DNA of 64,000 bases from Eledone cirrhosa (taxonomy: Eukaryota): the NCBI GenBank assembly GCA_964016885.1, contig OZ024744.1, positions 124,682,001-124,746,000 of the forward strand, written 5' to 3'. The stretch's first letter is position 1. Each line of letters opens with the position of its first letter. Below, one piece after another: positions 1-48,060 of the stretch. The notes below the pieces were generated by a model. That model searched no databases. It was given only the letters and a program-made list of their open reading frames with translations, and was not told where the DNA came from. The position numbers and the translations under genes are program-made.

Positions 1-3000
1 CTCAGCCCCAACTTAACTTAGCCCCAACTTAAATTAACCCCAACTTAATTTAACCCCAACTCAACTTAACCCCAACTTAAGTTGACCCCAACTTAAATTA
101 AACCCAACTTAACTTAACCCCAACTTAACTTAACCACAACTTAATTTAAACCCAACTTAACTTAACCCCAACTTAACTTATCCCCAACTTAACTAATCCC
201 CAACTTAACCTAACCCCAACTTAACTTAACCCCAACTTAAATTAACCCCAACTTAATTTAACCCCAACTTAACCTAACCCAAACTTAACCTAACCCCAAC
301 TTAACTTAACCCCAACTTAATTTAACCCCAACTTAACTTAACCCCAGCTTAACTTAAAGCCAACTTAACTTAACCCCAACTTAACTTAACCCTAACTTAA
401 CTTAACACCGACTTAACTTAACCCCGACTTAACTTAACCCCAACTTAACTTAACCCCAACTCAACTTAACCCCAACTTAACTTAACCCCAACTTAATTTA
501 ACCCCAAATTAACCCAAACTTAACTTAACCCCAACTTAACTGAACCACAACTTAACTTAACCCAAAATTAACTTAACCCCAACTTAACTTAACCCCAACT
601 TAACTTAATCCCAACTTAACTGAGCCCCAACTTAACTTAGCCCCAACTTAAATTAACCCCAACTTAATTTAACCCCAACTCAACTTAACCCCAACTTAAG
701 TTGACCCCAACTTAAATTAAACCCAACTTAACTTAACCCCAACTTAACTTAACCCCAACTTAACTTAGCCCCAACTTAACTTAGCCCCAACTTAACTTAG
801 CCCCAACTTAACTTAACCACAACTTAACTTAACCTCAACTTAACCCCAACTTAACTTAACCCCAACTTAACTTAACCCCAACTTAAATTAACCCCAACTT
901 AACATAACCTCAACTTAAATTAACCCCAACTTAACTCAACCTCAACTTAACTTAACCCCAACTTAACTTAACCCCAACTTAACTTAACCCCAACTTAAAA
1001 TAACCTCAACTTAAATTAACCCCAACTTAACTCAACCCCAACTTAACTTAACCCCGACTTAACTTAACCCCAACTTAACTTAACCCCAACTTAACTTAAC
1101 CGCAACTTAACTCAAACCCAACTTAAGTTAACTCCAACTTAACTTAACCCCAACTTCACTCAACCCCAACTTAACTTAACTCCAACTTAACTTAACTCCA
1201 ACTTAACTTAACCACAAAGTTAAATTAACCCCAATTTAAATTAACCCCAACTTAACTTAACCCCAACTTAACATAACCACCACTTAAATTAACCCCAACT
1301 TAACACCAACTTAACTTAACCCCAACTTAAATTAACCCCAACTCTACTTAACCCCAACTTAACTTAACCCCAACTTAACATAACCCCAACTTAAATTAAC
1401 CCTAACTTAACTTAACCCCAACTTAACTTAACCCCAACTTCAGTCAACCCCAACTTAACGTACACCCAACTTAACTCAGCCCCAACTTAACTTAGCCCCA
1501 ACTTGAAGTAACCCCAACTTAACTCAACCCCAACTTAACTTAACCCCAACTTAACTTCACCCCAACTTAACTCAACCCCAATTTAACTCAACCCCAACTT
1601 AACTCAACCCCAACTTAACTTAACCCCAACTTAACTTAACCCTAACTTAACTTAACACCGACTTAACATAACCCCGACTTAACTTAACCCCAACTTAACT
1701 TAAACCCAACTTAGCTTATCCCCAACTTAACTTATCCCCAACTTAACCTAACCCCAACTTAACTTAACCCCAACTTAATTTAACCCCAACTTAATTTAAC
1801 CCCAACTTAACTTAAACCCAACTTAACTTAACCCCAACTTAAATTAACCCCAACTGAACTTAACCCCAACTTAAATTAACCCCAACTTAACTTAACCCCA
1901 ACTTAACTTAACCCCAACTTAAATTAACCCCAACTTAACATAACCTCAACTTAAATTAACCCCAACTTAACTCAACCCCAACTTAACTTAACCCCGACTT
2001 AACTTAACCCCAACTTAACTTAACCCCAACTTAACTTAACCGCAACTTAACTTAAACCCAACTTAAGTTAACCCCAACTTAACTTAACCCCAACTTCCCT
2101 CAACCCCAATTTAAATTAACCCCAACTTAAGTTAACCCCAACTTAACATAACCACCACTTAACTTAACCCCAACTTAACACCAACTTAACTTAACCCCAA
2201 CTTAACTTAACCCCAACTCTACTTAACCCCAACTTAACTTAACCCCAACTTCACTCAACCCCAACTTAACTTACACCCAACTTAACTTAACCCCAACTTA
2301 ATTTAACCCCAACTTAACTTAACCCCAACTTAACATAACCACCACTTAACTTAACCCCAACTTAACTTAACCCCAACTTAACTTACCCCCAACTTAACTT
2401 ACCCCCAACTTAATTTAACCCCAACTTAACCTAACCCAAACTTAACCTAACCCCAACTTAACTTAACCCCAACTTAATTTAACCCCAACTTAACCTAACC
2501 CAAACTTAACCTAACCCCAACTTAACTTAACCCCAACTTAATTTAACCCCAACTTAACTTAACCCCAGCTTAACTTAAAGCCAACTTAACTTAACCCCAA
2601 CTTAACTTAACCCTAACTTAACTTAACACCGACTTAACTTAACCCCGACTTAACTTAACCCCAACTTAACTTAACCCCAACTTAACTTAACCCCAACTTA
2701 ACTTAACCCCAACTTAACTTAACCCCAACTTAATTTAACCCCAAATTAACCCAAACTTAACTTAACCCCAACTTAACTGAACCACAAATTAACTTAACCC
2801 AAAATTAACTTAACCCCAACTTAACTTAACCCCAACTTAACTTAACCCCAACTTAACTTAGCCCCAACTTAACTTAGCCCCAACTTAACTTAGCCCCAAC
2901 TTAACTTAACCACAACTTAACTTAACCTCAACTTAAACCCAACTTAACTTAACCCCAACTTAAATTAACCCCAACTTAAATTAACCCCAACTTAAGATAA

Positions 3001-6000
3001 CCTCAACTTAAATTAACCCCAACTTAACTCAACCCCAACTTAACTTAACCCCGACTTAACTTAACCCCAACTTAACTTAACCCCAACTTAACACCAACTT
3101 AACTTAACCCCAACTTAACTTAACCCCAACTCTACTTAACCCCAACTTAACTTAACCCCAACTTAACATAACCCCAACTTAAATTAACCCTAACTTAACT
3201 TAACCCCAACTTAACTTAACCCCAACTTCACTCAACCCCAACTTAACTTACACCCAACATAACTTAACCCCAACTTAATTTAACCCCAACTTAACTTAAC
3301 CCCAACTTAACATAACCACCACTTAACTTAACCCCAACTTAACTTAACCCCAACTTAACTTACCCCCAACTTAATTTACCCCCAACTTAACTTAACCCCA
3401 ACTTAAGTTAAGCCTAACTTAACTTAACCCCAACTTAACTTAACTCCGACTTTGGGGTTAAGTTAAGTTGGGGTTAAGTTAAGTTGGGGTTAAGTCAAGT
3501 TGGGGTTAAGTTAAGTTGGGGGTAAGTTAAGTTGCGTGTGAGTTAAGTTGGGGTTAAGTCAAGTTGGGGTTAAGTTAAGTCGGGGTTAAGTTAAGTCGGG
3601 GTTAAGTTAAGTCGGGGTTAAGTTAAGTTAGGGTTAAGTTAAGTTGGGGTTAAGTTAAGTTGGGGTTGAGTTAAGTTGGGGTTGAGTGAAGTTGTGGTTA
3701 CGTTAAGTTGGGGTTGAGTGAAGTCGGGGTTAAGTTAAGTTGGGGTTAAGTTAAGTTGGGGTTAACCCCAACTTAACCTAACCCCAACTTAACTTAACCC
3801 CAACTTAACTTAACCCCAACTTAATTTAACCCCAGCTTAACTTAACCCCAACTTAATTTAACCCCAACTTAACTTAACCCCAACTTAACTTAAACCCAAC
3901 TTAACTTAACCCCAACTTAGCTTATCCCCAACTTAACTTATCCCCAACTTAACCTATCCCCAACTTAACTTAAACCAACTTAACTTAACCCCAACTTAAC
4001 TTAACCCCAACTTAACTGAACCCCAACTTAACTTAACCCCAACTTAAATTAACCCTAACTTAACTTAACCCCAACTTAACTTAACCCCAACTTAACTTAA
4101 CCCCAACTTAATTTAACCCCAGCTTAACTTAACCCCAACTTAATTTAACCCCAACTGAACTTAATCCCAACTTAAATTAACCCCAACTTAACTTAACCCC
4201 AACTTAACTTAACCCCAACATAAATTAACCCCAACTTAACATAACCTCAACTTAAATTAACCCCAACTTAACTCAACCCCAACTTAAATTAACCCCGACT
4301 TAACTTAACCCCAACTTAAGTTAACCCCAACTTAACTTAACCCCAACTTAATTTAACCCCAACTTCACTCAACCCCAACTTAATTTAACCCCAACTTAAC
4401 TTAACCCAAACTTAACTTAACCACAAAGTTAACTTAACCCCAATTTAAATTAACCCCAACTTAAGTTAACCCCAACTTAACATAACCACCACTTAACTTA
4501 ACCCCAACTTAACCCCAACTTAACTTAACCCCAACTTAACACCAACTTAACTTAACCCCAACTTAACTTAACCCCAACTCTACTTAACCCCAACTTAACT
4601 TAACCCCAACTTCACTCAACCCCAACTTAACTTACACCCGACTTAACTTAACCCCAACTTAATTTAACCCCAACTTAACTTAACCTCAACTTAACATAAC
4701 CACCACTTATCTTAACCCCAACTTAACTTAACCCCAACTAAACTTACCCCCAACTTAACTTACCCCCAACTTAACTTAACCCCAACTTAAGTTAAGCCTA
4801 ACTTAACTTAACCCCAACTTAACTTAACTCCGACTTTGGGGTTAAGTTAAGTTGGGGGTAAGTTAAGTTGGGTGTGAGTTAAGTTGGGGTTCAGTCAAGT
4901 TGGGATTAAGTTAAGTTGGGGTTAAGTTAAGTTGGGGTTAAGTTAAGTTGGGGTTAAGTTAAGTCGGGGTTAAGTTTAAGTCGGGGTTAAGTTAAGTTAG
5001 GGTTAAGTTAAGTTGGGGTTAAGTTAAGTTGGGGTTGAGTTAAGTTGGGGTTGAGTGAAGTTGGGGTTAAGTTAAGTTGGGGTTGAGTGAAGTTGGGGTT
5101 AAGTTAATTGGGGTTAAGTTAAGTTGGGGTTAACCCCAACTTAACCTAACCCCAACTTAACTTAACCCCAACTTAATTTAACCCCAGCTTAACTTAACCC
5201 CAACTTAACCTAACCCCAACTTAACTTAACCACAACTTAACTTAACCCCAACTTAACTTAACCCCAACTTAACTGAACCCCAACTTAACTTAACCCCAAC
5301 TTAAATTAACCCCAACTTAACTTAAACTCAACTTAACTAACCCCAACTTAACTTAACCCCAACTTAACTTAACACCAATTTAACTTAACCCCAACTTAAC
5401 TTAACCCCAACTCGACTTAACCCCAACTTAACTTAACACCAACTTAACATAACCCCAACTTAAATTAACCCTAACTTAACTTAACTCCAACTTAACTTAA
5501 CCCCAACTTCACTCAACCCCAACTTAACTTACACCCAACTTAAGTTAACCCCACTTAATTTAACCCCAACTTAACTTAACCCCAACTTAACATAACCACC
5601 ACTTAACTTAACCCCAACTTAACTCAACCCCAACTTAACTTAACCCTAACTTAACTTAACCCCAACTTAACCCCAACTTAACTTAACCCCAACTTAACTT
5701 ACCCCCAACTTAACTTACCCCCAACTTAACTTAACCCCAACTTAAGTTAAGCCTAACTTAACTGAACCCCAACTTAACTGAACTCCGACTTTGGGGTTAA
5801 GTTAAGTTGGGGTTAAGTTAAGTTGGGTTTACGTCAAGTTGTGGTTAAGTTAAGTTGGGGGTAAGTTAAGTTGGGTGTGAGTTAATTTGGGGTTAAGTCA
5901 AGTTGGGGTTAAGTTAAGTTGGGGTTAAGTTAAGTTGGGGTTTAAGTTAAGTTGGGGTTAAGTTAAGTCGGGGTTAAGTTAAGTCGGGGTTAAGTTAAGT

Positions 6001-9000
6001 CAGGGTTAAGTTAAGTTGGGGTTAATTTAAGTTGGGGTTGAGTTAATTGGGGTTGAGTGAAGTTGGGGTTAATTTAAGTTGGGGTTGAGTGAAGTTGGGC
6101 TTAAGTTAAGTTGGGGTTAAGTTAAGTTGGGGTTAACCCCACTTAAACTAACCCCAACTTAACTTAACCCCAACTTAACATAACCCCAACTTAAATTAAC
6201 CCCAACTTAACTTAAACTCAACTTAACTAACCCCAACTTAACTTAACCCCAACTCGACTTAACCCCAACTTAACTTAACCCCAACTTAACATAACCCCAA
6301 CTTAAATTAACCCTAACTTAACTTAACACCAACTTAACTTAACCCCAACTTAACTTAACCCCAACTTAATTTAACCCCAGCTTAACTTAACCCCAACTTA
6401 ATTTAACCCCAACTGAACTTAATCCCAACTTAAATTAACCCCAACTTAACTTAACCCCAACTTAACTTAACCCCAACTTAAATTAACCCCAACTTAACAT
6501 AACCTCAACTTAAATTAACCCCAACTTAACTCAACCCCAACTTAAATTAACCCCGACTTAACTTAACCCCAACTTAAGTTAACCCCAACTTAACTTAACC
6601 CCAACTTAACTTAACCCCAACTTCACTCAACCCCAACTTAATTTAACCCCAACTTAACTTAACCCCAACTTAACTTAACCACAAAGTTAACTTAACCCCA
6701 ATTTAAATTAACCCCAACTTAAGTTAACCCCAACTTAACATAACCACCACTTAACTTAACCCCAACTTAACCCCAACTTAACTTAACCCCAACTTAACAC
6801 CAACTTAACTTAACCCCAACTTAACTTAACCACAACTCTACTTAACCCCAACTTAACTTAACCCCAACTTCACTCAACCCCAACTTAACTTACACCCAAC
6901 TTAACTTAACCCCAACTTAATTTAACCCCAACTTAACTTAACCTCAACTTAACATAACCACCACTTATCTTAACCCCAACTTAACTTAACCCCAACTTAA
7001 CTTACCCCCAACTTAACTTAACCCCAACTTAAGTTAAGCCTAACTTAACTTAACCCCAACTTAACTTAACTCCGACTTTGGGGTTAAGTTAATATGGGGG
7101 TAAGTTAAGTTGGGTGTGAGTTAAGTTGGGGTTAAGTCAAGTTGGGATTAAGTTAAGTTGGGGTTAAGTTAAGTCGGGGTTAAGTTTAAGTCGGGGTTAA
7201 GTTAAGTTAGGGTTAAGTTAAGTTGGGGTTAAGTTAAGTTGGGGTTGAGTTAAGTTGGGGTTGAGTGAAGTTGGGGTTAAGTTAAGTTGGGGTTGAGTGA
7301 AGTTGGGGTTAAGTTAAGTTGGGGGTAAGTTAAGTTGGGGTTAACCCCAACTTAACCTAACCCCAACTTAACTTAACCCCAACTTAATTTAACCCCAGCT
7401 TAACTTAACCCCAACTTAACCTAACCCCAACTTAACTTAACCACAACTTAACTTAACCCCAACTTAACTTAACCCCAACTTAACTGAACCCCAACTTAAC
7501 TTAACCCCAACTTAAATTAACCCCAACTTAACTTAAACTCAACTTAACTAACCCCAACTTAACTTAACCCCAACTAGACTTAACCCCAACTTAACTTAAC
7601 ACCAACTTAACATAACCCCAACTTAAATTAACCCTAACTTAACTTAACTCCAACTTAACTTAACCCCAACTTCACTCAACCCCAACTTAACTTACACCCA
7701 ACTTAAGTTAACCCCACTTAATTTAACCCCAACTTAACTTAACCCCAACTTAACATAACCACCACTTAACTTAACCCCAACTTAACTCAACCCCAACTTA
7801 ACTTAACCCTAACTTAAGTTAACCCCAACTTAACCCCAACTTAACTTAACCCCAACTTAACTTACCTCCAACTTAAATTACCCCCAACTTAACTTAACCC
7901 CAACTTAAGTTAAGCCTAACTTAACTGAACCCCAACTTAACTGAACTCCGACTTTGGGGTTAAGTTAAGTTGGGGTTAAGTTAAGTTGGGTTTACGTCAA
8001 GTTGTGGTTAAGTTAAGTTGGGGGTAAGTTAAGTTGGGTGTGAGTTAAGTTGGGGTTAAGTCAAGTTGGGGTTAAGTTAAGTTGGGGTTAAGTTAAGTTG
8101 GGGTTTAAGTTAAGTTGGGGTTAAGTTAAGTCGGGGTTAAGTTAAGTCGGGGTTAAGTTAAGTCAGGGTTAAGTTAAGTTGGGGTTAATTTAAGTTGGGG
8201 TTGAGTTAAGTTGGGGTTGAGTGAAGTTGCGGTTAATTTAAGTTGGGGTTGAGTGAAGTTGGGGTTAAGTTAAGTTGGGGTTAAGTTAAGTTGGGGTTAA
8301 CCCCACTTAAACTAACCCCAACTTAACTTAACCCCAACTTAACATAACCCCAACTTAATTTAACCCCAGCTTAACTTAAGCCCAACTTAATTTAACCCCA
8401 ACTTAACTTAACCCCAACTTAACTTAAACCCAACTTAACTTAACCCCAACTTAACTTATCCCCAACTTAACTTATCCCCAACTTAACCTAACCCCAACTT
8501 AACTTAACCCCAACTTAACTTAACCCCAACTTAATTTAACCCCAACTTAACTTAACCTAAACTTAACTTAACCCCAACTTAAATTAACCCCAACTTAACT
8601 TAACCCCAACTTAAATTAACCCCAACTTAACTTAACCCCAACTTAACTTAACCCCAACTTAACTTAACCCCAACTTAAAATAACCTCAACTTAAATTAAC
8701 CCCAACTTAACTCAACCCCAACTTAACTTAACCCCGACTTAACTTAACCCCAACTTAACTTAACCCCAACTTAACTTAACCGCAACTTAACTCAAACCCA
8801 ACTTAAGTTAACCCCAACTTAACTTAACCCCAACTTCACTCAACCCCAACTTAACTTAACTCTAACTTAACTTAACTCCAACTTAACTTAACCACAAAGT
8901 TAACTTAACCCCAATTTAAATTAACCCCAACTTAACTTAACCCCAACTTAACATAACCACCACTTAAATTAACCCCAACTTAACACCAACTTAACTTAAC

Positions 9001-9518
9001 CCCAACTTAAATTAACCCCAACTCTACTTAACCCCAACTTAACTTAACCCCAACTTAACATAACCCCAACTTAAATTAACCCTAACTTAACTTAACCCCA
9101 ACTTAACTTAACCCCAACTTCAGTCAACCCCAACTTAACGTACACCCAACTTAACTCAGCCTCAACTTAACTTAGCCCCAACTTGAAGTAACCCCAACTT
9201 AACTCAACCCCAACTTAACTTAACCCCAACTTAACTTAACCCCAACTTAACTCAACCCCAATTTAACTCAACCCCAACTTAACTCAACCCCAACTTAACT
9301 TAACCCCAACTTAACTTAACCCTAACTTAACTTAACACCGACTTAACATAACCCCGACTTAAATTAACCCCAACTTAACTTTAACCCAACTTAACTTAAC
9401 CCCAATTTAGCTTATCCCCAACTTAACTTATCCCCAACTTAACCTAACCCCAACCTAACTTAACCCCAACTTAATTTAACCCCAACTTAATTTAACCCCA
9501 ACTTAACTTAAACCCAAC
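1..9518. repeat. 16-bp satellite array (CCCCAACTTAACTTAA)n with five inverted blocks and higher-order structure
   Basis: Continuous 16-bp period with point variants. G-strand blocks at ~3451-3763, 4835-5131, 5790-6134, 7077-7342 and 7953-8298. Confidence 0.97.
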
Positions 9519-9718
9519 NNNNNNNNNNNNNNNNNNNNNNNNNNNNNNNNNNNNNNNNNNNNNNNNNNNNNNNNNNNNNNNNNNNNNNNNNNNNNNNNNN
9601 NNNNNNNNNNNNNNNNNNNNNNNNNNNNNNNNNNNNNNNNNNNNNNNNNNNNNNNNNNNNNNNNNNNNNNNNNNNNNNNNNNNNNNNNNNNNNNNNNNNN
9701 NNNNNNNNNNNNNNNNNN
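9519..9718. other. Assembly gap (200 N)
   Basis: Run of exactly 200 N; round size suggests a scaffolding placeholder. Confidence 0.99.
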
Positions 9719-10840: not shown

Positions 10841-11070
10841 TAAGTTAAGTTGGGGCTAAGTTAAGTTGGGGCTAAGTTAAGTTGAGGTTAAGTTGAGTTG
10901 GGGTTAAGTTAAGTGGGGGTTAAGTTAAGCTGGGGTTAAGTTAAGTTGAGGTTAAGTTAAGTTGGGGTTAAGTCAAGTTGGGGTTAAGTTAAGTTGGGGT
11001 TAAGTTAGGTTGGGGTTAAGTTAGGTTGGGGTTAAGTTAAGTTGGGGTTAAGTTAGGTTGCGGTTAAGTT
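10841..11070 (-). repeat. Short block (~14 units) of the same 16-bp satellite, G-strand orientation
   Basis: (GGGGTTAAGTTAAGTT)n; paralog at 49485-49714. Confidence 0.95.
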
Positions 11071-14000
11071 ACATTCGCCGCCGGACTTCAGCTTCCTCAT
11101 TTAGCATGGGCAGTTTTTCTTGAAAATCACACCACACACAGCAAATGTGTCCCCGCACATGTACCAGTAATTACAGATCGATTCCGGTGAAAATTCACTG
11201 AAAACGGGCCATCCGGCCCTGTGCGTCGATCGTGGGCCGGCCGGATGTTGACGGATCGATGTGTAATTAGAAGTACATGTGCGGACACTCATTGGCTGTG
11301 CGTGGTATGCATTTCAGCAAGATATCTCCGTAACATCAAGAGTTATGGCTGTGGAGGCACACCTAGTCAATCGCTTCGCGATATTGTTTACGTTTGACTA
11401 GGTGTGCCTCCACAGCCACAACTCTTGATGTTACGGAGATATCTTGCTGAAATGCATACCGCGCACAGCCAATGAGTGTCCGCACATGTACTTCTAATTA
11501 CACATCGATCCGTCAACATCCGGCCGGCCCACGATCGACGCACAGGGCCGGATGGCCCGTTTTCAGTGAATTTTCACCGGAATCGATCTGTAATTACTGG
11601 TACATGTGCGGAGACACATTTGCTGTGTGTGGTGTGATTTTCAAGAAAAACTGCCCATGCTAAATGAGGAAGCTGAAGTCCGCCGGCGAATGGTGTGCTT
11701 CGAAGAAAACTAATTCGAAAATGACCGTTTGCAGGCGGAGTAACCTTTTCGATCGTGGGCCAGCCGCCCGTGGTGGGATCCATCTGTAATTACTGGTACA
11801 TGTGCGGACATACATTTGCTGTGTGTGGTGTGATTTTCAAGAAGAACTGCCCATGCTAAATGAGGAAGCTGAAGTCCGCCGGCGAATGGTGTGCTTCGAA
11901 GAAAACTAATTCGAAAATGACCGTTTGCAGGCGGGGTAACCTTTTCGATCGTGGGCCAGCCGCCCGTGGTGGGATCCATCTGTAATTACTGGTACATGTG
12001 CGGACACACATTTGCTGTGTGTGGTGTGATTTTCGAGAAAGACTGCCCATGCTAAATGAGGAAGCTGAAGTCCGCCGGCGAATGGTGTGCTTCGAAGAAA
12101 ACTAATTCGAAAATGACTATTTGCCGGCGGAATCACCTTTTCGGTCCTGGTCCGGCCGGATCTTGCCGGATCGATCGGAAATTTGTGGACCATGTTCGGA
12201 AGGCCATTGTGCATGTGTGGTGAAAAAAATTTGTGTCGAAATCTTCTCGGAAAATAACGGATCGCCGGCGGAGATTGCCATTTCGATCGTGGGCCGGCCG
12301 GATCTTGTCGGATCGATTCGGACATATGTGCATCGTGTTCGCAAGGCCCTTGTCTATGTGTGGTGTGATTTTCATAAAGAAATTCCGAAAAACCCAGTTT
12401 TAAATCTGATTTCGCCAAAGAATTTTGGCTATCAGATCGGGTTGAAAGGTATGGTTTCAGGTCGATCTGAAAGTCTAAAATGGAATTCACTCGGTTAGCT
12501 AACTATTGATATATCGGAGATATCTTTCTGAAAATCACACCACACACTCCCAATGAGTGTCTGCACATGTACCAGTAATTACAGATGGATCCCACCACGG
12601 GCGGCCGGCCCACGATCGAAAAGGTTACTCCGAAGCACACCATTCGCCGGCGGAATTCATTTAGCATGGGCAGTTTTTCTCGAAAATCACACCACACACA
12701 GCCAATGAGTGTCCGCACATGTACCAGTAATTACAGATGGATCCCACCACGGGCGGCTGGCCCACGATCGAAAAGGTTACTCCGCCTGCAAACGGTCATT
12801 TTCGAATTCGTTTTCTTCGAAGCACACGATTCGCCGGCGGACTTCAGCTGCCTCATTTAGCATGGGCAGTTTTTCTCGAAAATCACACCACACACAGCAA
12901 ATGTGTGTCCGCACATGTACCAGTAATTACAGATCGATTCCGGTGAAAATTCACTGAAAACGGGCCATTCGGCCCTGTGCGTCGATCGTGGGCCGGCCGG
13001 ATGTTGACGGATCGATGTGTAATTAGAAGTACATGTGCGGACACTCATTGGCTGTGCGTGGTATGCATTTCAGCAAGATATCTCCGTAACATCAAGAGTT
13101 ATGGCTGTGGAGGCACACCTAGTCAAACGTAAACAAGCTCTGGAGCGTATACGCTTCGCGATTTTGTTTACGTTTGACTAGGTGTGCCTCCACAGCCACA
13201 ACTCTTGATGTTACGGAGATATCTTGCTGAAATGCATACCACGCACAGCCAATGAGTGTCCGCACATGTACTTCTAATTACACATCGATCCGTCAACATC
13301 CGGCCGGCCCACGATCGACGCACAGGGCCGGATGGCCCGTTTGCAGTGAATTTTCACCGGAATCGATCTGTAATTACTGGTACATGTGCGGACACACATT
13401 TGCTGTGTGTGGTGTGATTTTCACGAAAAACTGCCCATGCTAAATGAGGAAGCTGAAGTCCGCCGGCGAATGGTGTGCTTCGAAGAAAACTAATTCGAAA
13501 ATGACCGTTTGCAGGCGGAGTAACCTTTTCGATCGTGGGCCAGCCGCCCGTGGTGGGATACATCTGTAATTACTGGTACATGTGCGGACACACATTTGCT
13601 GTGTGTGGTGTGATTTTCGAGAAAGACTGCCCATGCTAAATGAGGAAGCTGAAGTCCGCCGGCGAATGGTGTGCTTCGAAGAAAACTAATTCGAAAATGA
13701 CTATTTGCCGGCGGAATCACCTTTTCGGTCCTGGTCCGGCCGGATCTTGCCGGATCGATCGGAAATTTGTGGACCATGTTCGGAAGGCCATTGTGCATGT
13801 GTGGTGAAAAAAATTTGTGTCGAAATCTTCTCGGAAAATAACGGATCGCCGGCGGAGATTGCCATTTCGATCGTGGGCCGGCCGGATCTTGTCGGATCGA
13901 TTCGGACATATGTGCATCGTGTTCGCAAGGCCCTTGTCTATGTGTGGTGTGATTTTCATAAAGAAATTCCGAAAAACCCAGTTTTAAATCTGATTTCGCC

Positions 14001-17000
14001 AAAGAATTTTGGCTATCAGATCGGGTTGAAAGGTATGGTTTCAGGTCGATCTGAAAGTCTAAAATGGAATTCACTCGGTTAGCTAACTTTTGATATATCG
14101 GAGATATCTTTCTGAAAATCACACCACACACTCCCAATGAGTGTCTGCACATGTACCAGTAATTACAGATGGATCCCACCACGGGCGGCCGGCCCACGAT
14201 CGAAAAGGTTACTCCGAAGCACACCATTCGCCGGCGGAATTCATTTAGCATGGGCAGTTTTTCTCGAAAATCAGACCACACACAGCCAATGAGTGTCCGC
14301 ACATGTACCAGTAATTACAGATGGATCCCACCACGGGCGGCTGGCCCACGATCGAAAAGGTTACTCCGCCTGCAAACGGTCATTTTCGAATTCGTTTTCT
14401 TCGAAGCACACGATTCGCCGGCGGACTTCAGCTGCCTCATTTAGCATGGGCAGTTTTTCTCGAAAATCACACCACACACAGCAAATGTGTGTCCGCACAT
14501 GTACCAGTAATTACAGATCGATTCCGGTGAAAATTCACTGAAAACGGGCCATTCGGCCCTGTGCGTCGATCGTGGGCCGGCCGGATGTTGACGGATCGAT
14601 GTGTAATTAGAAGTACATGTGCGGACACTCATTGGCTGTGCGTGGTATGCATTTCAGCAAGATATCTCCGTAACATCAAGAGTTATGGCTGTGGAGGCAC
14701 ACCTAGTCAAACGTAAACAAGCTCTGGAGCGTATACGCTTCGCGATTTTGTTTACGTTTGACTAGGTGTGCCTCCACAGCCACAACTCTTGATGTTACGG
14801 AGATATCTTGCTGAAATGCATACCACGCACAGCCAATGAGTGTCCGCACATGTACTTCTAATTACACATCGATCCGTCAACATCCGGCCGGCCCACGATC
14901 GACGCACAGGGCCGGATGGCCCGTTTGCAGTGAATTTTCACCGGAATCGATCTGTAATTACTGGTACATGTGCGGACACACATTTGCTGTGTGTGGTGTG
15001 ATTTTCGAGAAAGACTGCCCATGCTAAATGAGGAAGCTGAAGTCCGCCGGCGAATGGTGTGCTTCGAAGAAAACTAATTCGAAAATGACCGTTTGCAGGC
15101 GGAGTAACCTTTTCGATCGTGGGCCAGCCGCCCGTGGTGGGATACATCTGTAATTACTGGTACATGTGCGGACACACATTTGCTGTGTGTGGTGTGATTT
15201 TCGAGAAAGACTGCCCATGCTAAATGAGGAAGCTGAAGTCCGCCGGCGAATGGTGTGCTTCGAAGAAAACTAATTCGAAAATGACTATTTGCCGGCGGAA
15301 TCACCTTTTCGGTCCTGGTCCGGCCGGATCTTGCCGGATCGATCGGAAATTTGTGGACCATGTTCGGAAGGCCATTGTGCATGTGTGGTGAAAAAAATTT
15401 GTGTCGAAATCTTCTCGGAAAATAACGGATCGCCGGCGGAGATTGCCATTTCGATCGTGGGCCGGCCGGATCTTGTCGGATCGATTCGGACATATGTGCA
15501 TCGTGTTCGCAAGGCCCTTGTCTATGTGTGGTGTGATTTTCATAAAGAAATTCCGAAAAACCCAGTTTTAAATCTGATTTCGCCAAAGAATTTTGGCTAT
15601 CAGATCGGGTTGAAAGGTATGGTTTCAGGTCGATCTGAAAGTCTAAAATGGAATTCACTCGGTTAGCTAACTTTTGATATATCGGAGATATCTTTCTGAA
15701 AATCACACCACACACTCCCAATGAGTGTCTGCACATGTACCAGTAATTACAGATGGATCCCACCACGGGCGGCCGGCCCACGATCGAAAAGGTTACTCCG
15801 AAGCACACCATTCGCCGGCGGAATTCATTTAGCATGGGCAGTTTTTCTCGAAAATCACACCACACACAGCCAATGAGTGTCCGCACATGTACCAGTAATT
15901 ACAGATGGATCCCACCACGGGCGGCTGGCCCACGATCGAAAAGGTTACTCCGCCTGCAAACGGTCATTTTCGAATTCGTTTTCTTCGAAGCACACGATTC
16001 GCCGGCGGACTTCAGCTGCCTCATTTAGCATGGGCAGTTTTTCTCGAAAATCACACCACACACAGCAAATGTGTGTCCGCACATGTACCAGTAATTACAG
16101 ATCGATTCCGGTGAAAATTCACTGAAAACGGGCCATCCGGCCCTGTGCGTCGATCGTGGGCCGGCCGGATGTTGACGGATCGATGTGTAATTAGAAGTAC
16201 ATGTGCGGACACTCATTGGCTGTGCGTGGTATGCATTTCAGCAAGATATCTCCGTAACATCAAGAGTTATGGCTGTGGAGGCACACCTAGTCAAACGTAA
16301 ACAAGCTCTGGAGCGTATACGCTTCGCGATTTTGTTTACGTTTGACTAGGTGTGCCTCCACAGCCACAACTCTTGATGTTACGGAGATATCTTGCTGAAA
16401 TGCATACCACGCACAGCCAATGAGTGTCCGCACATGTACTTCTAATTACACATCGATCCGTCAACATCCGGCCGGCCCACGATCGACGCACAGGGCCGGA
16501 TGGCCCGTTTGCAGTGAATTTTCACCGGAATCGATCTGTAATTACTGGTACATGTGCGGACACACATTTGCTGTGTGTGGTGTGATTTTCGAGAAAGACT
16601 GCCCATGCTAAATGAGGAAGCTGAAGTCCGCCGGCGAATGGTGTGCTTCGAAGAAAACTAATTCGAAAATGACTATTTGCCGGCGGAATCACCTTTTCGG
16701 TCCTGGTCCGGCCGGATCTTGCCGGATCGATCGGAAATTTGTGGACCATGTTCGGAAGGCCATTGTGCATGTGTGGTGAAAAAAATTTGTGTCGAAATCT
16801 TCTCGGAAAATAACGGATCGCCGGTGGAGATTGCCATTTCGATCGTGGGCCGGCCGGATCTTGTCGGATCGATTCGGACATATGTGCATCGTGTTCGCAA
16901 GGCCCTTGTCTATGTGTGGTGTGATTTTCATAAAGAAATTCCGAAAAACCCAGTTTTAAATCTGATTTCGCCAAAGAATTTTGGCTATCAGATCGGGTTG

Positions 17001-17263
17001 AAAGGTATGGTTTCAGGTCGATCTGAAAGTCTAAAATGGAATTCACTCGGTTAGCTAACTATTGATATATCGGAGATATCTTTCTGAAAATCACACCACA
17101 CACTCCCAATGAGTGTCTGCACATGTACCAGTAATTACAGATGGATCCCACCACGGGCGGCCGGCCCACGATCGAAAAGGTTACTCCGAAGCACACCATT
17201 CGCCGGCGGAATTCATTTAGCATGGGCAGTTTTTCTCGAAAATCACACCACACACAGCCAATG
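11071..17263. repeat. Fold-back array: 196-bp CpG-rich monomers organised into 1584-bp palindromic higher-order units
   Basis: ORF track repeats every 1584 bp (12121, 13705, 15289) and mirrors about centres ~11382, 13150, 14734 and 16318. Monomer period 196 (11783 vs 11979). Confidence 0.95.
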
Positions 17264-19995: not shown

Positions 19996-20000
19996 TTTAA

Positions 20001-41559: not shown

Positions 41560-41647
41560 ACCCTAACCCTAAACCTAACCCCAACTCCAACTCTGACCCT
41601 AAACCTAACCCCAACCCCAACCCCAACCCTAACCCTAACCCTAACCC
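41560..41647. repeat. Degenerate telomere-like hexamers (CCCTAA/CCCCAA)
   Basis: About 14 hexamers directly upstream of the 169/172-bp repeats. Confidence 0.8.
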
Positions 41648-42400
41648 ACGATAGAAGACGTTCGTTACCGCTGGAGCAACGCAAATTACTCCTCGGTTGA
41701 CGCCAAAAACGAACGCCTTCTCGACGGCTAGCCGCATTTCGTGATCCGCCTTTCGATTGCGCTTCCGTCGCGGAAAAAGAATTGCCTTTATAGGCCGCCG
41801 CCGCCCGACCGGACCCACGATAGAAGACGTTCGTTACCGCTGGAGCAACGCAAATTACTCCTCGGTTGACGCCAAAAACGAACGCCTTCTCGACGGCTAG
41901 CCGCATTTCGTGATCCGCCTTTCGATTGCGCTTCCGTCGCGGAAAAAGAATTGCCTTTATAGGCCGCCGCCGCCCGACCGGACCCACGATAGAAGACGTT
42001 CGTTACCGCTGGAGCAACGCAAATTACTCCTCGGTTGACGCCAAAAACGAACGCCTTCTCGACGGCTAGCCGCATTTCGTGATCCGCCTTTCGATTGCGC
42101 TTCCGTCGCGGAAAAAGAATTGCCTTTATAGGCCGCCGCCGCCGCCCGACCGGACCCACGATAGAAGACGTTCGTTACCGCTGGAGCAACGCAAATTACT
42201 CCTCGGTTGACGCCAAAAACGAACGCCTTCTCGACGGCTAGCCGCATTTCGTGATCCGCCTTTCGATTGCGCTTCCGTCGCGGAAAAAGAATTGCCTTTA
42301 TAGGCCGCCGCCGCCGCCCGACCGGACCCACGATAGAAGACGTTCGTTACCGCTGGAGCAACGCAAATTACTCCTCGGTTGACGCCAAAAACGAACGCCT
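41648..42400 (+). repeat. 169/172-bp GC-rich tandem repeat upstream of 18S (ETS/IGS-like subrepeat), 4 full copies plus a partial
   Basis: Periods 169, 169, 172, 172, differing by one GCC; lies ~360 bp upstream of the 18S 5' end. Confidence 0.88.
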
Positions 42401-42759
42401 TCCGGTTCGGGCGACGTAAAAGTCTGTAGCCTTTTCGCCGATCCTCGACGATTATCCGCCTTCCGAACAACCGCCTTTCCGCCGTCACAGCAGTAGGTAC
42501 TCGTCCGTCGTAATAGCCGTCATTTTAATGCAGGAGAAACGCCTAAATGCACTGCGATTGACGACGATCTACGACGCGCTTACTCTTCCTTGCTGCGACG
42601 AAGGTTTCGTTCGGCTTTTCGTCGTGGACCCGGTCAGGTCATGCCGCTGATCTCGCGTTGCGTCGTTACCGCTGGAGCAACGCAAATTACTCCTCGTTTA
42701 ACGCCAACATCGAACGCGCTTCGGTTCTCGGTCGTCGTTGTTTTGTTTCGTGCGGAAGA

Positions 42760-42945
42760 TACCTGGGTGATCCTGCCAGTAGTCATATGCTTGTCTCAAA
42801 GCTTAAGCCATGCAAGTGGAAGTTCATGCCGTAAACGAAAATGGTGAAACCGCGAATGGCTCAGGAACCGGATCTAATCCTCGGGACCGTATTCCTCACC
42901 GCGAGGAGAGGATAACTGTGGCAATTCTAGAGCTAATACATGCAA
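42760..42945 (+). pseudogene. 18S rRNA 5' end fragment
   Basis: TACCTGGGTGATCCTGCCAGTAGTCATATGCTTGTCTCAAAGCTTAAGCCATGCA; GGTGAAACCGCGAATGGCTCA; GGATAACTGTGGCAATTCTAGAGCTAATACATGC, all near-universal eukaryotic SSU motifs. Confidence 0.93.
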
Positions 42946-45900
42946 TTGAGATCGGAGAGGGAGCGATCCGTCTGCTTGATTCCGATAACGAACGAGACAT
43001 TCGTATCCGAAAGAACGTTTGTCTGGAAACTGGTGCAGTCAGTGAGTCGAAAAAAAAATATCTCGGTGGTAGTAGCAAATATTCGAACGAGACATTCGTA
43101 TGCGAAAGAACGTTTGTCGGTGGTAGTAGCAAATATTCGAACGAGACATTCGTATGCGAAAGAACGTTTGTCGGTGGTAGTAGCAAATATTCGAACGAGA
43201 CATTCGTATGCGAAAGAACGTTTGTCTGGAAGTGGCGATCCATGCCCGGTGGATAGTTGGTTCCGGGTTTTACTATGATTGTTGCAAAACAGAAACTTAA
43301 AGGGATTGACAGAATTTGCGATTCCGGAGAGGGGGCGATCCGTCTGCTTGATTCCGATAACGAACGAGACATTCGTATCCGAAAGAACGTTTGTCTGGAA
43401 ACTGGTGAGTCAGTGAGTCGAAAAAAAAAATATCTCGGTGGTAGTAGCAAATATTCGAACGAGACATTCGTATGCGAAAGAACGTTTGTCGGTGGTAGTA
43501 GCAAATATTCGAACGAGACATTCGTATGCGAAAGAACGTTTGTCGGTGGTAGTAGCAAATATTCGAACGAGACATTCGTAGGCGAAAGAAAAATATCTCG
43601 GTGGTAGTAGCAAATATTCGAACGAGACATTCGTATTCGAAAGAACGTTTGTCTGGAAGTTGCGATCCATGCCCGGTGGATAGTTGGTTCCGGGTTTTAC
43701 TATGATTGTTGCAAAACAGAAACTTAAAGGGATTGACAGAATTTGCGATTCCGGAGAGGGGGCGATCCGTCTGCTTGATTCCGATAACGAACGAGACATT
43801 CGTATCCGAAAGAACGTTTGTCTGGAAACTGGTGAGTCAGTGAGTCGAAAAAAAAAATATCTCGGTGGTAGTAGCAAATATTCGAACGAGACATTCGTAT
43901 GCGAAAGAACGTTTGTCGGTGGTAGTAGCAAATATTCGAACGAGACATTCGTATGCGAAAGAACGTTTGTCTGGAAGTGGCGATCCATGCCCGGTGGATA
44001 GTTGGTTCCGGGTTTTACTATGATTGTTGCAAAACAGAAACTTAAAGGGATTGACAGAATTTGCGATTCCGGAGAGAGGGCGATCCGTCTGCTTGATTCC
44101 GATAACGAACGAGACATTCGTATCCGAAAGAACGTTTGTCTGGAAACTGGTGCAGTCAGTGAGTCGAAAAAAAAATATCTCGGTGGTAGTAGCAAATATT
44201 CGAACGAGACATTCGTATGCGAAAGAACGTTTGTCGGTGGTAGTAGCAAATATTCGAACGAGACATTCGTATGCGAAAGAACGTTTGTCTGGAAGTGGCG
44301 ATCCATGCCCGGTGGATAGTTGGTTCCGGGTTTTACTATGATTGTTGCAAAACAGAAACTTAAAGGGATTGACAGAATTTGCGATTCCGGAGAGGGGGCG
44401 ATCCGTCTGCTTGATTCCGATAACGAACGAGACATTCGTATCCGAAAGAACGTTTGTCTGGAAACTGGTGAGTCAGTGAGTCGAAAAAAAAAATATCTCG
44501 GTGGTAGTAGCAAATATTCGAACGAGACATTCGTATGCGAAAGAACGTTTGTCGGTGGTAGTAGCAAATATTCGAACGAGACATTCGTATGCGAAAGAAC
44601 GTTTGTCGGTGGTAGTAGCAAATATTCGAACGAGACATTCGTAGGCGAAAGAAAAATATCTCGGTGGTAGTAGCAAATATTCGAACGAGACATTCGTATT
44701 CGAAAGAACGTTTGTCTGGAAGTTGCGATCCATGCCCGGTGGATAGTTGGTTCCGGGTTTTACTATGATTGTTGCAAAACAGAAACTTAAAGGGATTGAC
44801 AGAATTTGCGATTCCGGAGAGGGGGCGATCCGTCTGCTTGATTCCGATAACGAACGAGACATTCGTATCCGAAAGAACGTTTGTCTGGAAACTGGTGAGT
44901 CAGTGAGTCGAAAAAAAAAATATCTCGGTGGTAGTAGCAAATATTCGAACGAGACATTCGTATGCGAAAGAACGTTTGTCGGTGGTAGTAGCAAATATTC
45001 GAACGAGACATTCGTATGCGAAAGAACGTTTGTCGGTGGTAGTAGCAAATATTCGAACGAGACATTCGTATGCGAAAGAACGTTTGTCTGGAAGTGGCGA
45101 TCCATGCCCGGTGGATAGTTGGTTCCGGGTTTTACTATGATTGTTGCAAAACAGAAACTTAAAGGGATTGACAGAATTTGCGATTCCGGAGAGAGGGCGA
45201 TCCGTCTGCTTGATTCCGATAACGAACGAGACATTCGTATCCGAAAGAACGTTTGTCTGGAAACTGGTGAGTCAGTGAGTCGAAAAAAAAATATCTCGGT
45301 GGTAGTAGCGAATATTCGTATGCGAAAGAAAAGATCTCGGTGGTAGTAGCAAATATTCGAACGAGACATTCGTAGGCGAAAGAAAAATATCTCGGTGGTA
45401 GTAGCAAATATTCGAACGAGACATTCGTATGCGAAAGAACGTTTGTCGGTGGTAGTAGCAAATATTCGAACGAGACATTCGTATGCGAAAGAACGTTTGT
45501 CGGTGGTAGTAGCAAATATTCGAACGAGACATTCGTATGCGAAAGAACGTTTGTCTGGAAGTGGCGATCCATGCTCGGTGGATAGTTGGTTCCGGGTTTT
45601 ACTATGATTGTTGCAAAACAGAAACTTAAAGGGATTGACAGAATTTGCGATTCCGGAGAGGGGGCGATCCGTCTGCTTGATTCCGATAACGAACGAGACA
45701 TTCGTATCCGAAAGAACGTTTGTCTGGAAACTGGTGAGTCAGTGAGTCGAAAAAAAAATATCTCGGTGGTAGTAGCAAATATTCGAACGAGACATTCGTA
45801 TGCGAAAGAACGTTTGTCGGTGGTAGTAGCAAATATTCGAACGAGACATTCGTATGCGAAAGAACGTTTGTCTGGAAGTGGCGATCCATGCCCGGTGGAT

Positions 45901-47680
45901 AGTTGGTTCCGGGTTTTACTATGATTGTTGCAAAACAGAAACTTAAAGGGATTGACAGAATTTGCGATTCCGGAGAGGGGGCGATCCGTCTGCTTGATTC
46001 CGATAACGAACGAGACATTCGTATCCGAAAGAACGTTTGTCTGGAAACTGGTGAGTCGAAAAAAAAATATCTCGGTGGTAGTAGCAAATATTCGTATGCG
46101 AAAGAAAAGATCTCGGTGGTAGTAGCAAATATTCGAACGAGACATTCGTAGGCGAAAGAAAAATATCTCGGTGGTAGTAGCAAATATTCGAACGAGACAT
46201 TCGTATGCGAAAGAACGTTTGTCGGTGGTAGTAGCAAATATTCGAACGAGACATTCGTATGCGAAAGAACGTTTGTCGGTGGTAGTAGCAAATATTCGAA
46301 CGAGACATTCGTATGCGAAAGAACGTTTGTCTGGAAGTGGCGATCCATGCCCGGTGGATAGTTGGTTCCGGGTTTTACTATGATTGTTGCAAAACAGAAA
46401 CTTAAAGGGATTGACAGAATTTGCCATTCCGGAGAGGGGGCGATCCGTCTGCTTGATTCCGATAACGAACGAGACATTCGTATCCGAAAGAACGTTTGTC
46501 TGGAAACTGGTGAGTCAGTGAGTCGAAAAAAAAATATCTCGGTGGTAGTAGCAAATATTCGAACGAGACATTCGTATTCGAAAGAACGTTTGTCTGGAAG
46601 TTGCGATCCATGCCCGGTGGATAGTTGGTTCCGGGCTTTACTATGATTGTTGCAAAACAGAAACTTAAAGGGATTGACAGAATTTGCGATTCCGGAGAGG
46701 GGGCGATCCGTCTGCTTGATTTCGATAACGAACGAGACATTCGTATCCGAAAGAACGTTTGTCTGGAAACTGGTGAGTCAGTGAGTCGAAAAAAAAAATA
46801 TCTCGGTGGTAGTAGCAAATATTCGAACGAGACATTCGTATGCGAAAGAACGTTTGTCGGTGGTAGTAGCAAATATTCGAACGAGACATTCGTATGCGAA
46901 AGAACGTTTGTCGGTGGTAGTAGCAAATATTCGAACGAGACATTCGTATGCGAAAGAACGTTTGTCTGGAAGTGGCGATCCATGCCCGGTGGATAGTTGG
47001 TTCCGGGTTTTACTATGATTGTTGCAAAACAGAAACTTAAAGGGATTGACAGAATTTGCGATTCCAGAGAGAGGGCGATCCGTCTGCTTGATTCCGATAA
47101 CGAACGAGACATTCGTATCCGAAAGAACGTTTGTCTGGAAACTGGTGAGTCAGTGAGTCGAAAAAAAAATATCTCGGTGGTAGTAGCAAATATTCGAACG
47201 AGACATTCGTATGCGAAAGAACGTTTGTCTGGAAGTGGCGATCCATGCTCGGTGGATAGTTGGTTCCGGGTTTTACTATGATTGTTGCAAAACAGAAACT
47301 TAAAGGGATTGACAGAATTTGCGATTCCGGAGAGGGGGCGATCCGTCTGCTTGATTCCGATAACGAACGAGACATTCGTATCCGAAAGAACGTTTGTCTG
47401 GAAACTGGTGAGTCAGTGAGTCGAAAAAAAAATATCTCGGTGGTAGTAGCAAATATTCGTATGCGAAAGAAAAGATCTCGGTGGTAGTAGCAAATATTCG
47501 AACGAGACATTCGTATGCGAAAGAAAAATATCTCGGTGGTAGTAGCAAATATTCGAACGAGACATTCGTATTCGAAAGAACGTTTGTCTGGAAGTTGCGA
47601 TCCATGCCCGGTGGATAGTTGGTTCCGGGCTTTACTATGATTGTTGCAAAACAGAAACTTAAAGGAATTGACAGAATTTT
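42946..47680 (+). repeat. rRNA-derived mosaic satellite: 13 units of 263-467 bp with a variable 54-bp sub-repeat
   Basis: Unit markers at 43257, 43684, 44002, 44320, 44747, 45119, 45586, 45903, 46362, 46625, 46997, 47260, 47619. Contains 18S motifs (TTCCGATAACGAACGAGAC, GAAACTTAAAGG.ATTGAC) and a 28S motif (GGTGGTAGTAGCAAATATTC). Confidence 0.9.
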
Positions 47681-47699
47681 CGAATCGACATCAACTCGG

Positions 47700-48060
47700 C
47701 TACGGCTATCCCGTCGAGTACGAGAGTATCGCGGGATCAGAGCAACGGTTTGCTAGGCTGCCTCTGAGCGATAACGGCTGAACGCCTCCTCTAAGCCGGA
47801 ACCCTAGCCGGACCCGAGTTGTTTTTCGACAAGCGTCTCGACCTTCTTAAGGCCCATGCCTTAGTTTGGCGATTGCCGTCCGTTCGCCGACGGCGGCAGC
47901 GTCAGCGGAAATGCCATTCTGTGACGACTACGACGATTCGTCGTCGTCGTCGTCCATTCGATTTCCTGAAAGAGATAGAGACTAAAGTGATCAAATTGTT
48001 CGGAGTTACGTGCTTAGTAGAGCAGCTACCACACTGCAATCTATTGAGAGTTTTCTGACG
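47700..48060 (+). pseudogene. 28S rRNA 3'-terminal remnant
   Basis: AGTACGAGAG, CTGAACGCCTC..TAAG and TAGAGCAGC....CTGCAATCTATTGAGAGT occur in the order of conserved LSU 3'-end motifs. Confidence 0.75.

Follow-up and report, generated by a model that had tools for sequence, protein, structure and literature searches.

A tandem array of long inverted repeats in the spacer of a derelict animal rDNA unit

The fold-back array described here belongs to the spacer of an animal rDNA unit that is derelict and has been duplicated in tandem, and the array occurs twice in the window (the whole 64-kb stretch of DNA that was analysed), at minisatellite scale, with four hairpins in one copy and three in the other. 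With somewhat better than even confidence, it can be viewed as a complex higher-order satellite which would have been made by fold-back replication error; most likely it is a by-product of such errors, devoid of a selected role. A preliminary description of copy 1 had recognized the hairpins, their loop and the stepwise unit lengths, yet it overlooked both the second copy and the rDNA context, and several of its anatomical details required revision.

Anatomy of the array

The arms of hairpins 2 and 3 (Table 1) are 97-98% complementary over 480 nt (12 of 480 positions mismatched) and lie 27 nt apart, and a perfect 12-bp palindrome at 13144-13155 forms the centre of the hairpin 2 loop. Arms of 480 bp, attributed previously to every unit, are found in two of the four hairpins of copy 1 and in three of the seven in the window. 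The remaining hairpins are shorter: hairpin 1 is reduced by the array start and by the loss of 24 nt from its tip, as compared with array copy 2, and the near-perfect arms of hairpin 4 cover about 343 nt. In the latter hairpin, identity is 96-100% per 50 nt out to 300 nt from the tip, and beyond a step at about 343 nt it amounts to 188/275 (68%) up to the wide spacers. The arms are 96-100% alike near the tip and then drop stepwise to about 68%; the alignment of these outer halves scores 194, and no score among 500 shuffles exceeded 72.5.

Tip-to-tip spacings in copy 1 are 1780, 1584 and 1584, and spacer-to-spacer distances are 1584, 1584 and 1388, which bears out the proposed variation in exact 196-bp steps; it is the number of 196-bp subunits in the right arm, from one to three, that gives the 1388/1584/1780 series. 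The loop is common to six tips, two of which carry a two-base variant, while the seventh tip is partly deleted. All seven hairpins carry the same A/G difference between their arms, 36 nt from the loop, in agreement with the earlier remark that arm mismatches are conserved across copies. The long arms and the recurrent loop constitute long inverted subunits with conserved inversion sites. A tandem higher-order organization is likewise evident, since whole units differ from one another by only 0-5 nt in 1388-1584, versus 48-98% pairwise identity among the nine related subunits of the 1584-bp unit; one unit is even identical over 1584 nt between copies 1 and 2.

As a whole, the unit consists of related 143-196-bp subunits arranged as an inverted dimer, in which the orientation changes four times, rather than twice as first reported, and a core of about 60 nt is conserved in all nine subunits. 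The notion of a unit built from 196-bp monomers applies to two near-identical 196-mers (94%), but the other subunits are 143-152 bp long or re-arranged. The wide spacer measures about 96 nt rather than about 125 bp, and the palindrome GTTAGCTAAC, placed within it by the preliminary description, sits at its edge, off the symmetry axis. The spacer contains small hairpins (z -3.2, 3/200 shuffles). Palindromes of at least 6 bp are enriched in the 196-mer (9 versus 2.65 expected, 1/1000 shuffles), an enrichment that the same test did not detect in the LINE or the 169-bp repeats. Folding of 121 nt around one tip gave z = -16.4, with none of 200 shuffles as stable, and a single 149-nt subunit stretch taken by itself did not fold in any unusual way (z +1.0). 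The CpG richness noted earlier holds with respect to the flanks (observed/expected 1.16 versus 0.34-0.48), but the rDNA-like parts of the window are richer still (1.48-1.83).

Comparison of arms across the hairpins revealed that left arms resemble the right arms of other hairpins at least as closely as that of their own hairpin, and that similarity is higher among arms of the same side than between opposite sides, which fits recent tandem copying of one ancestral hairpin. The comparison gives no sign of the active upkeep implied by the earlier view of a "maintained" element, nor does it support ongoing arm-to-arm conversion. At one position, 260 nt away from the tip, the two arms of 4/6 hairpins agree, but the change there corresponds to a CpG transition.

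A stop-free minus-strand frame of 274 codons (13490-14314) exceeds most controls (1/500 dinucleotide shuffles; 9 and 4 of 500 Markov samples). It was rejected as a gene on account of stops in 3/6 units and a low ESM Atlas score (recognition 878, best hit 0.76). No family was recovered in a Pfam scan of three array frames.

Table 1. Coordinates of the array, its hairpins and the neighbouring features in the window
Feature	Position	Strand	Remarks
16-bp satellite	6..9518	.	unit as in the 10841..11071 block, mainly opposite strand
Assembly gap, 200 N	9519..9718	.	conceals sequence preceding copy 1; 1.35 kb upstream of array
16-bp repeat, 14 copies	10841..11071	+	directly before array copy 1; also 49485-49715
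Fold-back array copy 1	11072..17263	.	four tips, four wide spacers
Hairpin 1	11072..11692	.	left arm cut by array start; ~293 nt paired
Tandem 196-bp subunits (example, 2.9 copies)	11586..12158	+	one to three copies in the right arm
Hairpin 2	12657..13643	.	arms 12657-13136 and 13164-13643, loop 13137-13163
Nested inner inverted pair per arm (example)	12870..13078	.	~12870-12938 vs 13011-13078; 56/69 identical
Wide spacer, ~96 nt	13988..14083	.	also 12404-12499, 15572-15667, 16960-17055
Hairpin 3	14241..15227	.	arms 14241-14720 and 14748-15227, loop 14721-14747
Hairpin 4 (1388-bp basic unit)	15668..16960	.	loop 16305-16331
169-bp GC/CpG-rich repeats	41644..42402	+	upstream of 18S start
18S rRNA gene 5' end	42760..42960	+	Rfam RF01960, 109.6 bits, model 1-191 of 1831
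Tandem repeats, 54-bp and 263-467-bp periods	42950..47690	+	replace body of rRNA genes
28S rRNA gene 3' end	47690..48072	+	Rfam RF02543, 61.6 bits, model 3005-3399 of 3401
Fold-back array copy 2	49716..53544	.	loops 50025-50051, 51805-51831, 53389-53415

The second copy and its rDNA surroundings

The second array lies within a duplication of 5182 columns and 99.2% identity (9719-14876 = 48363-53544), and 83% of 48363-64000 has counterparts upstream with an identity of at least 95%. The right flanks of the two copies differ, each copy stopping at a different point inside the array, and all four array ends, including both ends of copy 1, are cut within subunits.

The order of features is 18S start, 28S end and array, with 1.64 kb between the 28S 3' end and copy 2, so that copy 2 occupies the position downstream of the 28S 3' end that is expected of spacer sub-repeats. 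It is this 28S end, together with the 18S 5' end upstream, on which the assignment to an rDNA spacer is based. The adjacency counts as one independent observation, since copy 1 is a duplicate whose upstream sequence falls in the assembly gap. The only rDNA unit in the window is internally deleted; the tandem repeats that replace the gene bodies presumably retain rRNA-like motifs, and two sampled stretches of them gave no Rfam hit. By their position, the 169-bp repeats would be 5' ETS-like. The best match of the array subunit profile outside the arrays, in a comparison which included the ETS-like repeats and the 3' spacer, had an E value of 1.6, and the true Pol I promoter is probably absent from the window. 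SINE-like pieces are present between the 28S end and the array, and the array may thus be a later insertion into junk.

The adjacent 16-bp satellite shares the fold-back design: the block at 6..9518 includes five inverted blocks of 231-327 bp with recurring junctions, and the same design is seen at 19 microsatellite palindromes, which points to a shared mutational process. A simple local inverted triplication is not demonstrated in this satellite, since the inverted blocks match their immediate flanks (0.46-0.76) no better than they match distant blocks (0.77-0.91) in an ungapped, register-sensitive comparison.

Origin of the array and alternative explanations

The history that we infer begins with a subunit of about 145 bp, rich in short palindromes, which would have become repeated. 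Old fold-back template switches at the short palindromes may then have produced the inverted dimer, whose outer halves now share about 68% identity, as well as the nested inverted pair (now 81%). A more recent fold-back at the tight tip would have used one arm as the template for rewriting about 340 nt of the other, and the return of copying to the template at a homologous subunit would account for the drop from 98% to 68%. Unequal exchange could subsequently have changed the number of 196-bp subunits and amplified the unit in tandem, and the whole rDNA macro-unit of about 33-39 kb would finally have been duplicated. The inverted-dimer anatomy with its identity step and the nine related subunits support replication fold-back, and CpG is undepleted in the array, as in the rDNA parts of the window. 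Small inverted triplications from replication errors have a median spacer of 30 bp in the available text of one study (PMC13334657), to which the 27-nt tip loop is close. The palindrome probably acts as a fragile site, and has probably persisted by virtue of its imperfect tip and the young age of its copies.

The anatomy is also compatible with a foldback element of the Tetris/Rehavkus type, and the foremost alternative, which is nevertheless unlikely, is a head-to-tail tandem of a non-autonomous, Mutator-like foldback DNA transposon. One element would then begin with a right arm and end with the left arm that follows (e.g. 13164-14720), with the 27-nt loop as the junction, the arms as long terminal inverted repeats and the internal 196-bp repeats variable in number. 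Tetris is described as combining ~220-bp repeats, variable in number, with an outer flanking domain that matches them at ~80% over a short stretch (PMC4079207), and Rehavkus as carrying tandem repeats inside inverted termini (PMC12581902), both according to the portions available. The array agrees in its 480-nt terminal inverted repeats at 97-98%, in the 1-3-fold variation of the 196-mer and in the tip-proximal subunit that shares 56/69 nt with the repeat core. However, no target duplication was observed at either array, where the sequences up to 25 nt from the ends have no word in common longer than 4-5 nt, a weak test for 8-10-bp duplications given that the ends are truncated. Moreover, the truncation itself falls inside subunits at every end, no dispersed copy is present elsewhere in the 64-kb window, transposase families are lacking in the three frames scanned, and the supposed middle is itself composed of diverged inverted subunits.

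Two further proposals assign the array to functional rDNA. In the broader one, which is quite unlikely, kilobase palindromes would be a regular part of active rDNA spacers, possibly in octopods: 1-kb cruciform-capable dyads behind each 28S gene would serve as a fork barrier or recombination switch, driving inverted rDNA amplification and decay, seeding the adjacent fold-back satellite and providing, through Pol I read-through, long dsRNA for ADAR. If so, dyad satellites of the Tribolium type would extend beyond beetles and be linked to rDNA. In the narrower one, distinctly improbable as well, the array would be a part of a working spacer carried along here in a pseudogene unit, its palindromic sub-repeats binding a dimeric factor or extruding a cruciform and acting as a Pol I enhancer, a terminator/fork barrier or an origin. 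The array does follow a 28S end, with a T-run and the 14 copies of the 16-mer just ahead, its nine subunits keep their conserved core, and its sub-repeat number varies, as is typical of rDNA spacers. Yet the window holds no intact rDNA unit, the profile comparison showed no likeness of the array to the ETS-like region, and its arms give no sign of upkeep.

It is very unlikely that the array is a hairpin-RNA locus, in which read-through transcription would yield a duplex of about 500 bp, to be ADAR-edited or diced, as the preliminary description had suggested. A long hairpin or cruciform is possible in principle by fold prediction, 12600-13700 being predicted to form a single long stem (-1027 kcal/mol), and the position downstream of the 28S end would be within reach of Pol I read-through. 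Any long inverted repeat, however, folds in this manner, and the upstream rRNA unit is broken. The arm mismatches show no G-U bias: counted as G-U on the plus strand, G-U on the minus strand and other, they amount to 2+2+8, 3+1+8 and 2+2+8 in three non-independent hairpins, i.e. 8 of 12 per hairpin are non-wobble on either strand. The Rfam scan of 9700-14300 returned nothing at threshold, with miRNA and sRNA hits below it besides a histone stem-loop, and no tRNA was found. The canonical endo-siRNA route is reported as lost in molluscs in the portion available of PMC11114477, which is relevant only if the host is a mollusc.

A sequencing or assembly artefact, whether by fold-back reads or by repeats mis-joined or expanded beside a gap, is hardly credible. 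The 200-N gap lies close upstream of copy 1, one unit is identical between the two copies, and consensus errors may account for the number of copies and for the 24 nt lost at one tip; nevertheless, the arm difference fixed in 7/7 hairpins, the outer halves only 68% alike, the recurrence of the loop with its two-base variant and the two loci with unlike right flanks all uphold the earlier judgement that this is not a simple read fold-back artefact. Least conceivable of all is the relic of a hairpin-ended replicon (a rolling-hairpin viral or linear-plasmid concatemer) that had inserted into the spacer, which would suit the alternation of tight and wide junctions, the imperfect palindrome through the tip and the branched small hairpins in both other loops, but for which there is no coding capacity, no match among 50,697 phage and 72,556 plasmid records and none for a 30-nt core in GTDB genomes.

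Comparison with known systems

The foldback elements Tetris (Drosophila virilis) and Rehavkus, in their available descriptions, resemble the array in their long inverted repeats, variable internal repeats of about 200 bp and lack of coding capacity. They differ in that the array has no target duplication, no intact border ends and no dispersed copy in the window, and in that its inverted arms face each other over 27 nt, in tandem. Satellite arrays in rDNA spacers are known from Lepidoptera (AuSat, IiSat and PxSat; PMC10257491) and from tomato, where an IGS-derived satellite has lost rRNA coding sequence (PMC2679016). As far as the accessible text of these two reports goes, they share with the present array the variable-length arrays of ~250-bp repeats that spread past intact rDNA, but are tandem arrays for which a long inverted dimer is not mentioned. 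Small inverted triplications and ODIRA, as partially available (PMC13334657, PMC10766183), are one-off de novo events, each creating two new junctions, whereas here the product has become fixed and has been amplified, and of its junctions just a single tight one is recent. In the freely accessible literature covered, no such unit was found in a cephalopod or an rDNA spacer, although the repeat libraries that accompany cephalopod genome papers may contain this repeat.

The fold-back design is real and rare, but beetle satellites of this kind are already on record. On the descriptions available, the closest precedent is the 1061-bp major satellite of Tribolium brevicornis, with its two inverted subunits of about 470 bp (Mravinac et al. 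2005, via PMC13081366 and PMC12581902). Both systems have tandem units of more than 1 kb, with 480-nt arms in a 1584-bp unit in the present case. The beetle satellite is centromeric and occurs on all chromosomes, in contrast to 4 + 3 hairpins in an rDNA spacer, and the array differs further, by description rather than by sequence, in that the orientation switches four times per unit and the arms consist of segments of two ages. According to the same two partial sources (PMC13081366, PMC12581902), TmSat2/MAD2 of T. madens (704 bp) and TAUD2 of T. audax are, like the array, derived wholly from one short subunit, with an ancestral length of about 110 bp versus about 145 bp here; the inversion-site loops of T. 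freemani TfSat01 span 9-27 bp; and dyads appear in Tribolium and in the array at three levels, namely short palindromes, a unit-level dyad and conserved inversion sites. Tribolium, however, exhibits multi-kilobase macro-dyads in megabase arrays, while the present arrays span 4-6 kb and the unit dyad is dominant.

Long dyads within satellite units are uncommon according to the available text of a 2026 paper, in which the T. brevicornis case of about 470 bp is the largest reported and Tribolium is the only genus with documented dyads at the level of the array (PMC13081366). The array is so far a structural curiosity. Nevertheless, its arms are as long as those of T. brevicornis and enclose a loop of 27 nt, and conserved inversion sites are also present, on a smaller scale of about 300 bp, in the neighbouring 16-bp satellite. 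Combining arm segments of old and of recent origin within a single unit, the array offers a compact, datable case of dyad origin and ties satellite dyads to decaying rDNA.

Hairpins, arms and subunits

The fold-back satellite (the array) contains genuine hairpins, with 480-nt arms that are 98% complementary and 27 nt apart at 12657-13136/13164-13643 and 14241-14720/14748-15227. The preliminary description gave such arms to every unit of the first copy, where two of the four hairpins have them in full: hairpin 1 is truncated where the array begins and is without 24 nt at its tip (the tight loop between arms), either a true loss or a consensus error, and hairpin 4 pairs near-perfectly over ~343 nt. 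Spacing in this copy is 1780, 1584 and 1584 nt from tip to tip, and 1584, 1584 and 1388 nt between wide spacers, the other symmetry centre of the unit. The loop centre is a 12-bp perfect palindrome in four of the seven tips, a one-base variant in two and partially deleted in one; the 121 nt round one tip fold with z = -16.4.

Each 1584-bp unit contains nine occurrences of a ~60-nt core, arranged + + + - | + - - - -, and there are thus four orientation switches per unit rather than the two first described. Subunits of 196 bp (196-mers) do occur, as had been claimed, yet the nine subunits span 143-196 bp with 48-98% pairwise identity; by a weak alignment, the 196-mer looks like a ~143-mer that may carry a diverged internal duplication of ~53 bp. 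A whole inverted dimer makes up the 1388-bp unit. Compared across the tip in 50-nt steps, its two sides are 96-100% identical up to 300 nt; identity falls at ~343 nt and from there to the ~96-nt wide spacer is ~68%. These outer halves agree at 188 of 275 aligned positions (score 194; the best of 500 shuffles reached 72.5), and a further inverted pair is nested inside each arm (56/69 identical). Palindromes of at least 6 bp number nine in the 196-mer against 2.65 expected (1/1000 shuffles), and other parts of the unit have 13 (5.4 expected) and 17 (7.4 expected); the sequence directly behind the 28S end is mildly enriched (17/1000), and no enrichment was found in the retrotransposon (LINE) or the 169-bp repeats upstream of the 18S start. 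The stop-free frame across the wide spacer gave no family match.

In the 295 nt beside the tip of hairpins 2, 3, 4 and 6 (hairpin 1, with its tip loss, and hairpin 7, with no full right arm, were left out), left arms lie 0-1 nt from each other, right arms 0-3 nt, and left from right 4-6 nt. Left arms match their own partners no better than they match the other right arms, and the proposal of a maintained element is not sustained. Units differ by 0-5 nt, and the pattern fits the recent spread in tandem of a single hairpin that already had ~2% divergence between its arms. Hairpin 5, which opens the second copy, is slightly more symmetric (three arm differences), and one site is equal across the tip in four of six hairpins, although that site is a CpG transition in copies that are not independent of one another. 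Each of the four array ends breaks off within a subunit, and the two right ends do so at different positions, which fits fragility.

Ribosomal DNA setting

Features of the window
Feature	Position	Strand	Remarks
16-bp satellite	6-9518		9.5 kb
Histone 3' stem-loop	9839-9883; 48483-48527		36.6 bits, above Rfam threshold; 0.4 kb past 28S end
Array, copy 1	11072-17263		hairpins 1-4
Stop-free frame	13490-14314	-	274 codons (253 from first Met); spans wide spacer; open in 3/6 units
Macro-unit blocks in changed order	19993-26167 vs 54804-58895		one 2.3-kb block three times at >=99.8%
(CA)n-CG-(TG)n palindromes	27082-28030; 31313-31545; 59840; 60464-60660		19, embedded in (TA)n runs
Endonuclease-RT LINE	28320-31193	-	open 957-codon frame; first macro-unit only, absent from second
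CT run, short purine-rich motif, telomere-like repeats	31600-32050; 60690-61390		recurring module
Degenerate (TAACCC)n tracts	31687-32023; 34620-34660; 41560-41647; 60950-61370		two directly before ETS-like sequence
Fragment akin to C-terminus of RT-bearing proteins	33768-34187; 63106-63522	+	joined to (ATT)n run
Collapsed rDNA unit	41644-48072		169-bp ETS-like repeats, 18S 5' end, ~4.7 kb of tandem repeats, 28S 3' end
18S 5' end	42760-42960		109.6 bits; upstream of copy 2
28S 3' end	47690-48072		61.6 bits; upstream of copy 2
Array, copy 2	49716-53544		hairpins 5-7

The second copy of the array lies within a 99.2% duplication (9719-14876 at 48363-53544). Since 83% of 48363-64000 recurs upstream at an identity of at least 95%, the region is a macro-unit of about 33-39 kb repeated in tandem. 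In the collapsed rDNA unit, tandem repeats of ~4.7 kb in all, presumably rRNA-like, replace the gene body between the 18S start and the 28S end; two samples of them gave no recognised rRNA in Rfam. A 23-nt motif is present 37 times in this unit, which looks like a satellite expanding from rRNA sequence. The second copy begins 1.64 kb past the 28S end and is preceded by 14 copies of a 16-mer; its position therefore makes the array part of the spacer of a derelict rDNA unit. This adjacency counts as one independent observation only, because the first copy begins near a 200-N gap. That the array is a regular, active part of the rDNA spacer is unlikely.

The array was also described as CpG-rich for the window, which holds against most flanks (observed/expected 1.16, undepleted, versus 0.34-0.68) but not against the rDNA-like parts (1.48-1.83). 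In Octopus bimaculoides, repeats are described as mostly unmethylated and satellites as somewhat more methylated (PMC9476566); CpG richness alone is thus little informative if the host is an octopod.

The histone stem-loop is either a chance match or an orphan histone 3' end; 47600-48520 on the plus strand contains no stop-free frame longer than 99 codons. Two of the (TAACCC)n tracts are placed as if telomere repeats had capped broken rDNA units that fused afterwards.

Neighbouring repeats

The 16-bp satellite contains five inverted blocks of 231-327 bp, spaced 876-1384 nt apart and 91-99% identical to each other, each bounded by a recurring imperfect junction and a spacer-less palindromic junction. 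On a small scale it resembles the array-level dyads reported from Tribolium only. It shows a telomere-like strand bias, and its 16-mer also occurs in the spacer before both arrays. The (CA)n-CG-(TG)n palindromes are microsatellite-scale fold-backs. Three unrelated fold-back repeats in one window would suggest a mutational habit and not a purpose.

The LINE differs between the macro-units through either recent insertion or loss. The named relatives of its protein are distant animal proteins, and judged by the LINE and these relatives the window is animal DNA. We take the fragment joined to the (ATT)n run to be R4/Dong-like, and the SINE-like repeats of the window are presumably octopod.

Origin and known counterparts

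Behind a 28S end lie tandem copies of an inverted dimer whose arms are of two ages. The older inversions would have arisen where replication switched templates at short palindromes; more recently, folding back at the tight tip may have re-copied ~340 nt before rejoining the template at a homologous subunit. Unequal exchange could afterwards have altered the number of 196-mers and multiplied the unit, with duplication of the macro-unit coming last. We regard this history as moderately probable. Replication errors are reported to generate small inverted triplications with a median spacer of 30 bp (PMC13334657), and inverted amplicons to arise through switches at short inverted repeats (PMC10766183).

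The main rival has foldback elements of the Tetris or Rehavkus type arrayed in tandem. Long inverted repeats with a variable internal repeat match well with such elements as described (PMC4079207, PMC12581902), yet neither target duplications nor intact borders nor dispersed copies are seen in the 64-kb window, and we hold this reading to be improbable. A working rDNA spacer element is doubtful, and a hairpin-RNA locus is very unlikely; the arm mismatches show no G-U bias. All seven hairpins carry the same fixed arm difference 36 nt from the loop, in agreement with the reported conservation of arm mismatches across copies, and a sequencing or assembly artefact is scarcely credible; a viral relic is least credible of all. 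The fold-back first described is real and was partly mis-described, and no function has been demonstrated.

Our literature search, covering main texts from mostly non-subscription journals, found no published description of an inverted dimer on the kilobase scale within rDNA spacers, or of a cephalopod satellite of this kind. Satellite arrays in rDNA spacers are reported from moths (PMC10257491) and tomato (PMC2679016). In Tribolium, the accounts describe a 1061-bp T. brevicornis satellite of two ~470-bp inverted subunits, a ~600-bp dyad within the 704 bp of T. madens TmSat2, and ~700-bp inverted subrepeats in T. audax TAUD2 (PMC13081366, PMC12581902), units for which the term "complex higher-order repeats" is used (PMC5737470). 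The array is best filed among the dyad higher-order repeats of Tribolium type, here placed in a derelict rDNA spacer; with these inverted-subunit satellites it shares the build of its unit, a likeness of architecture.
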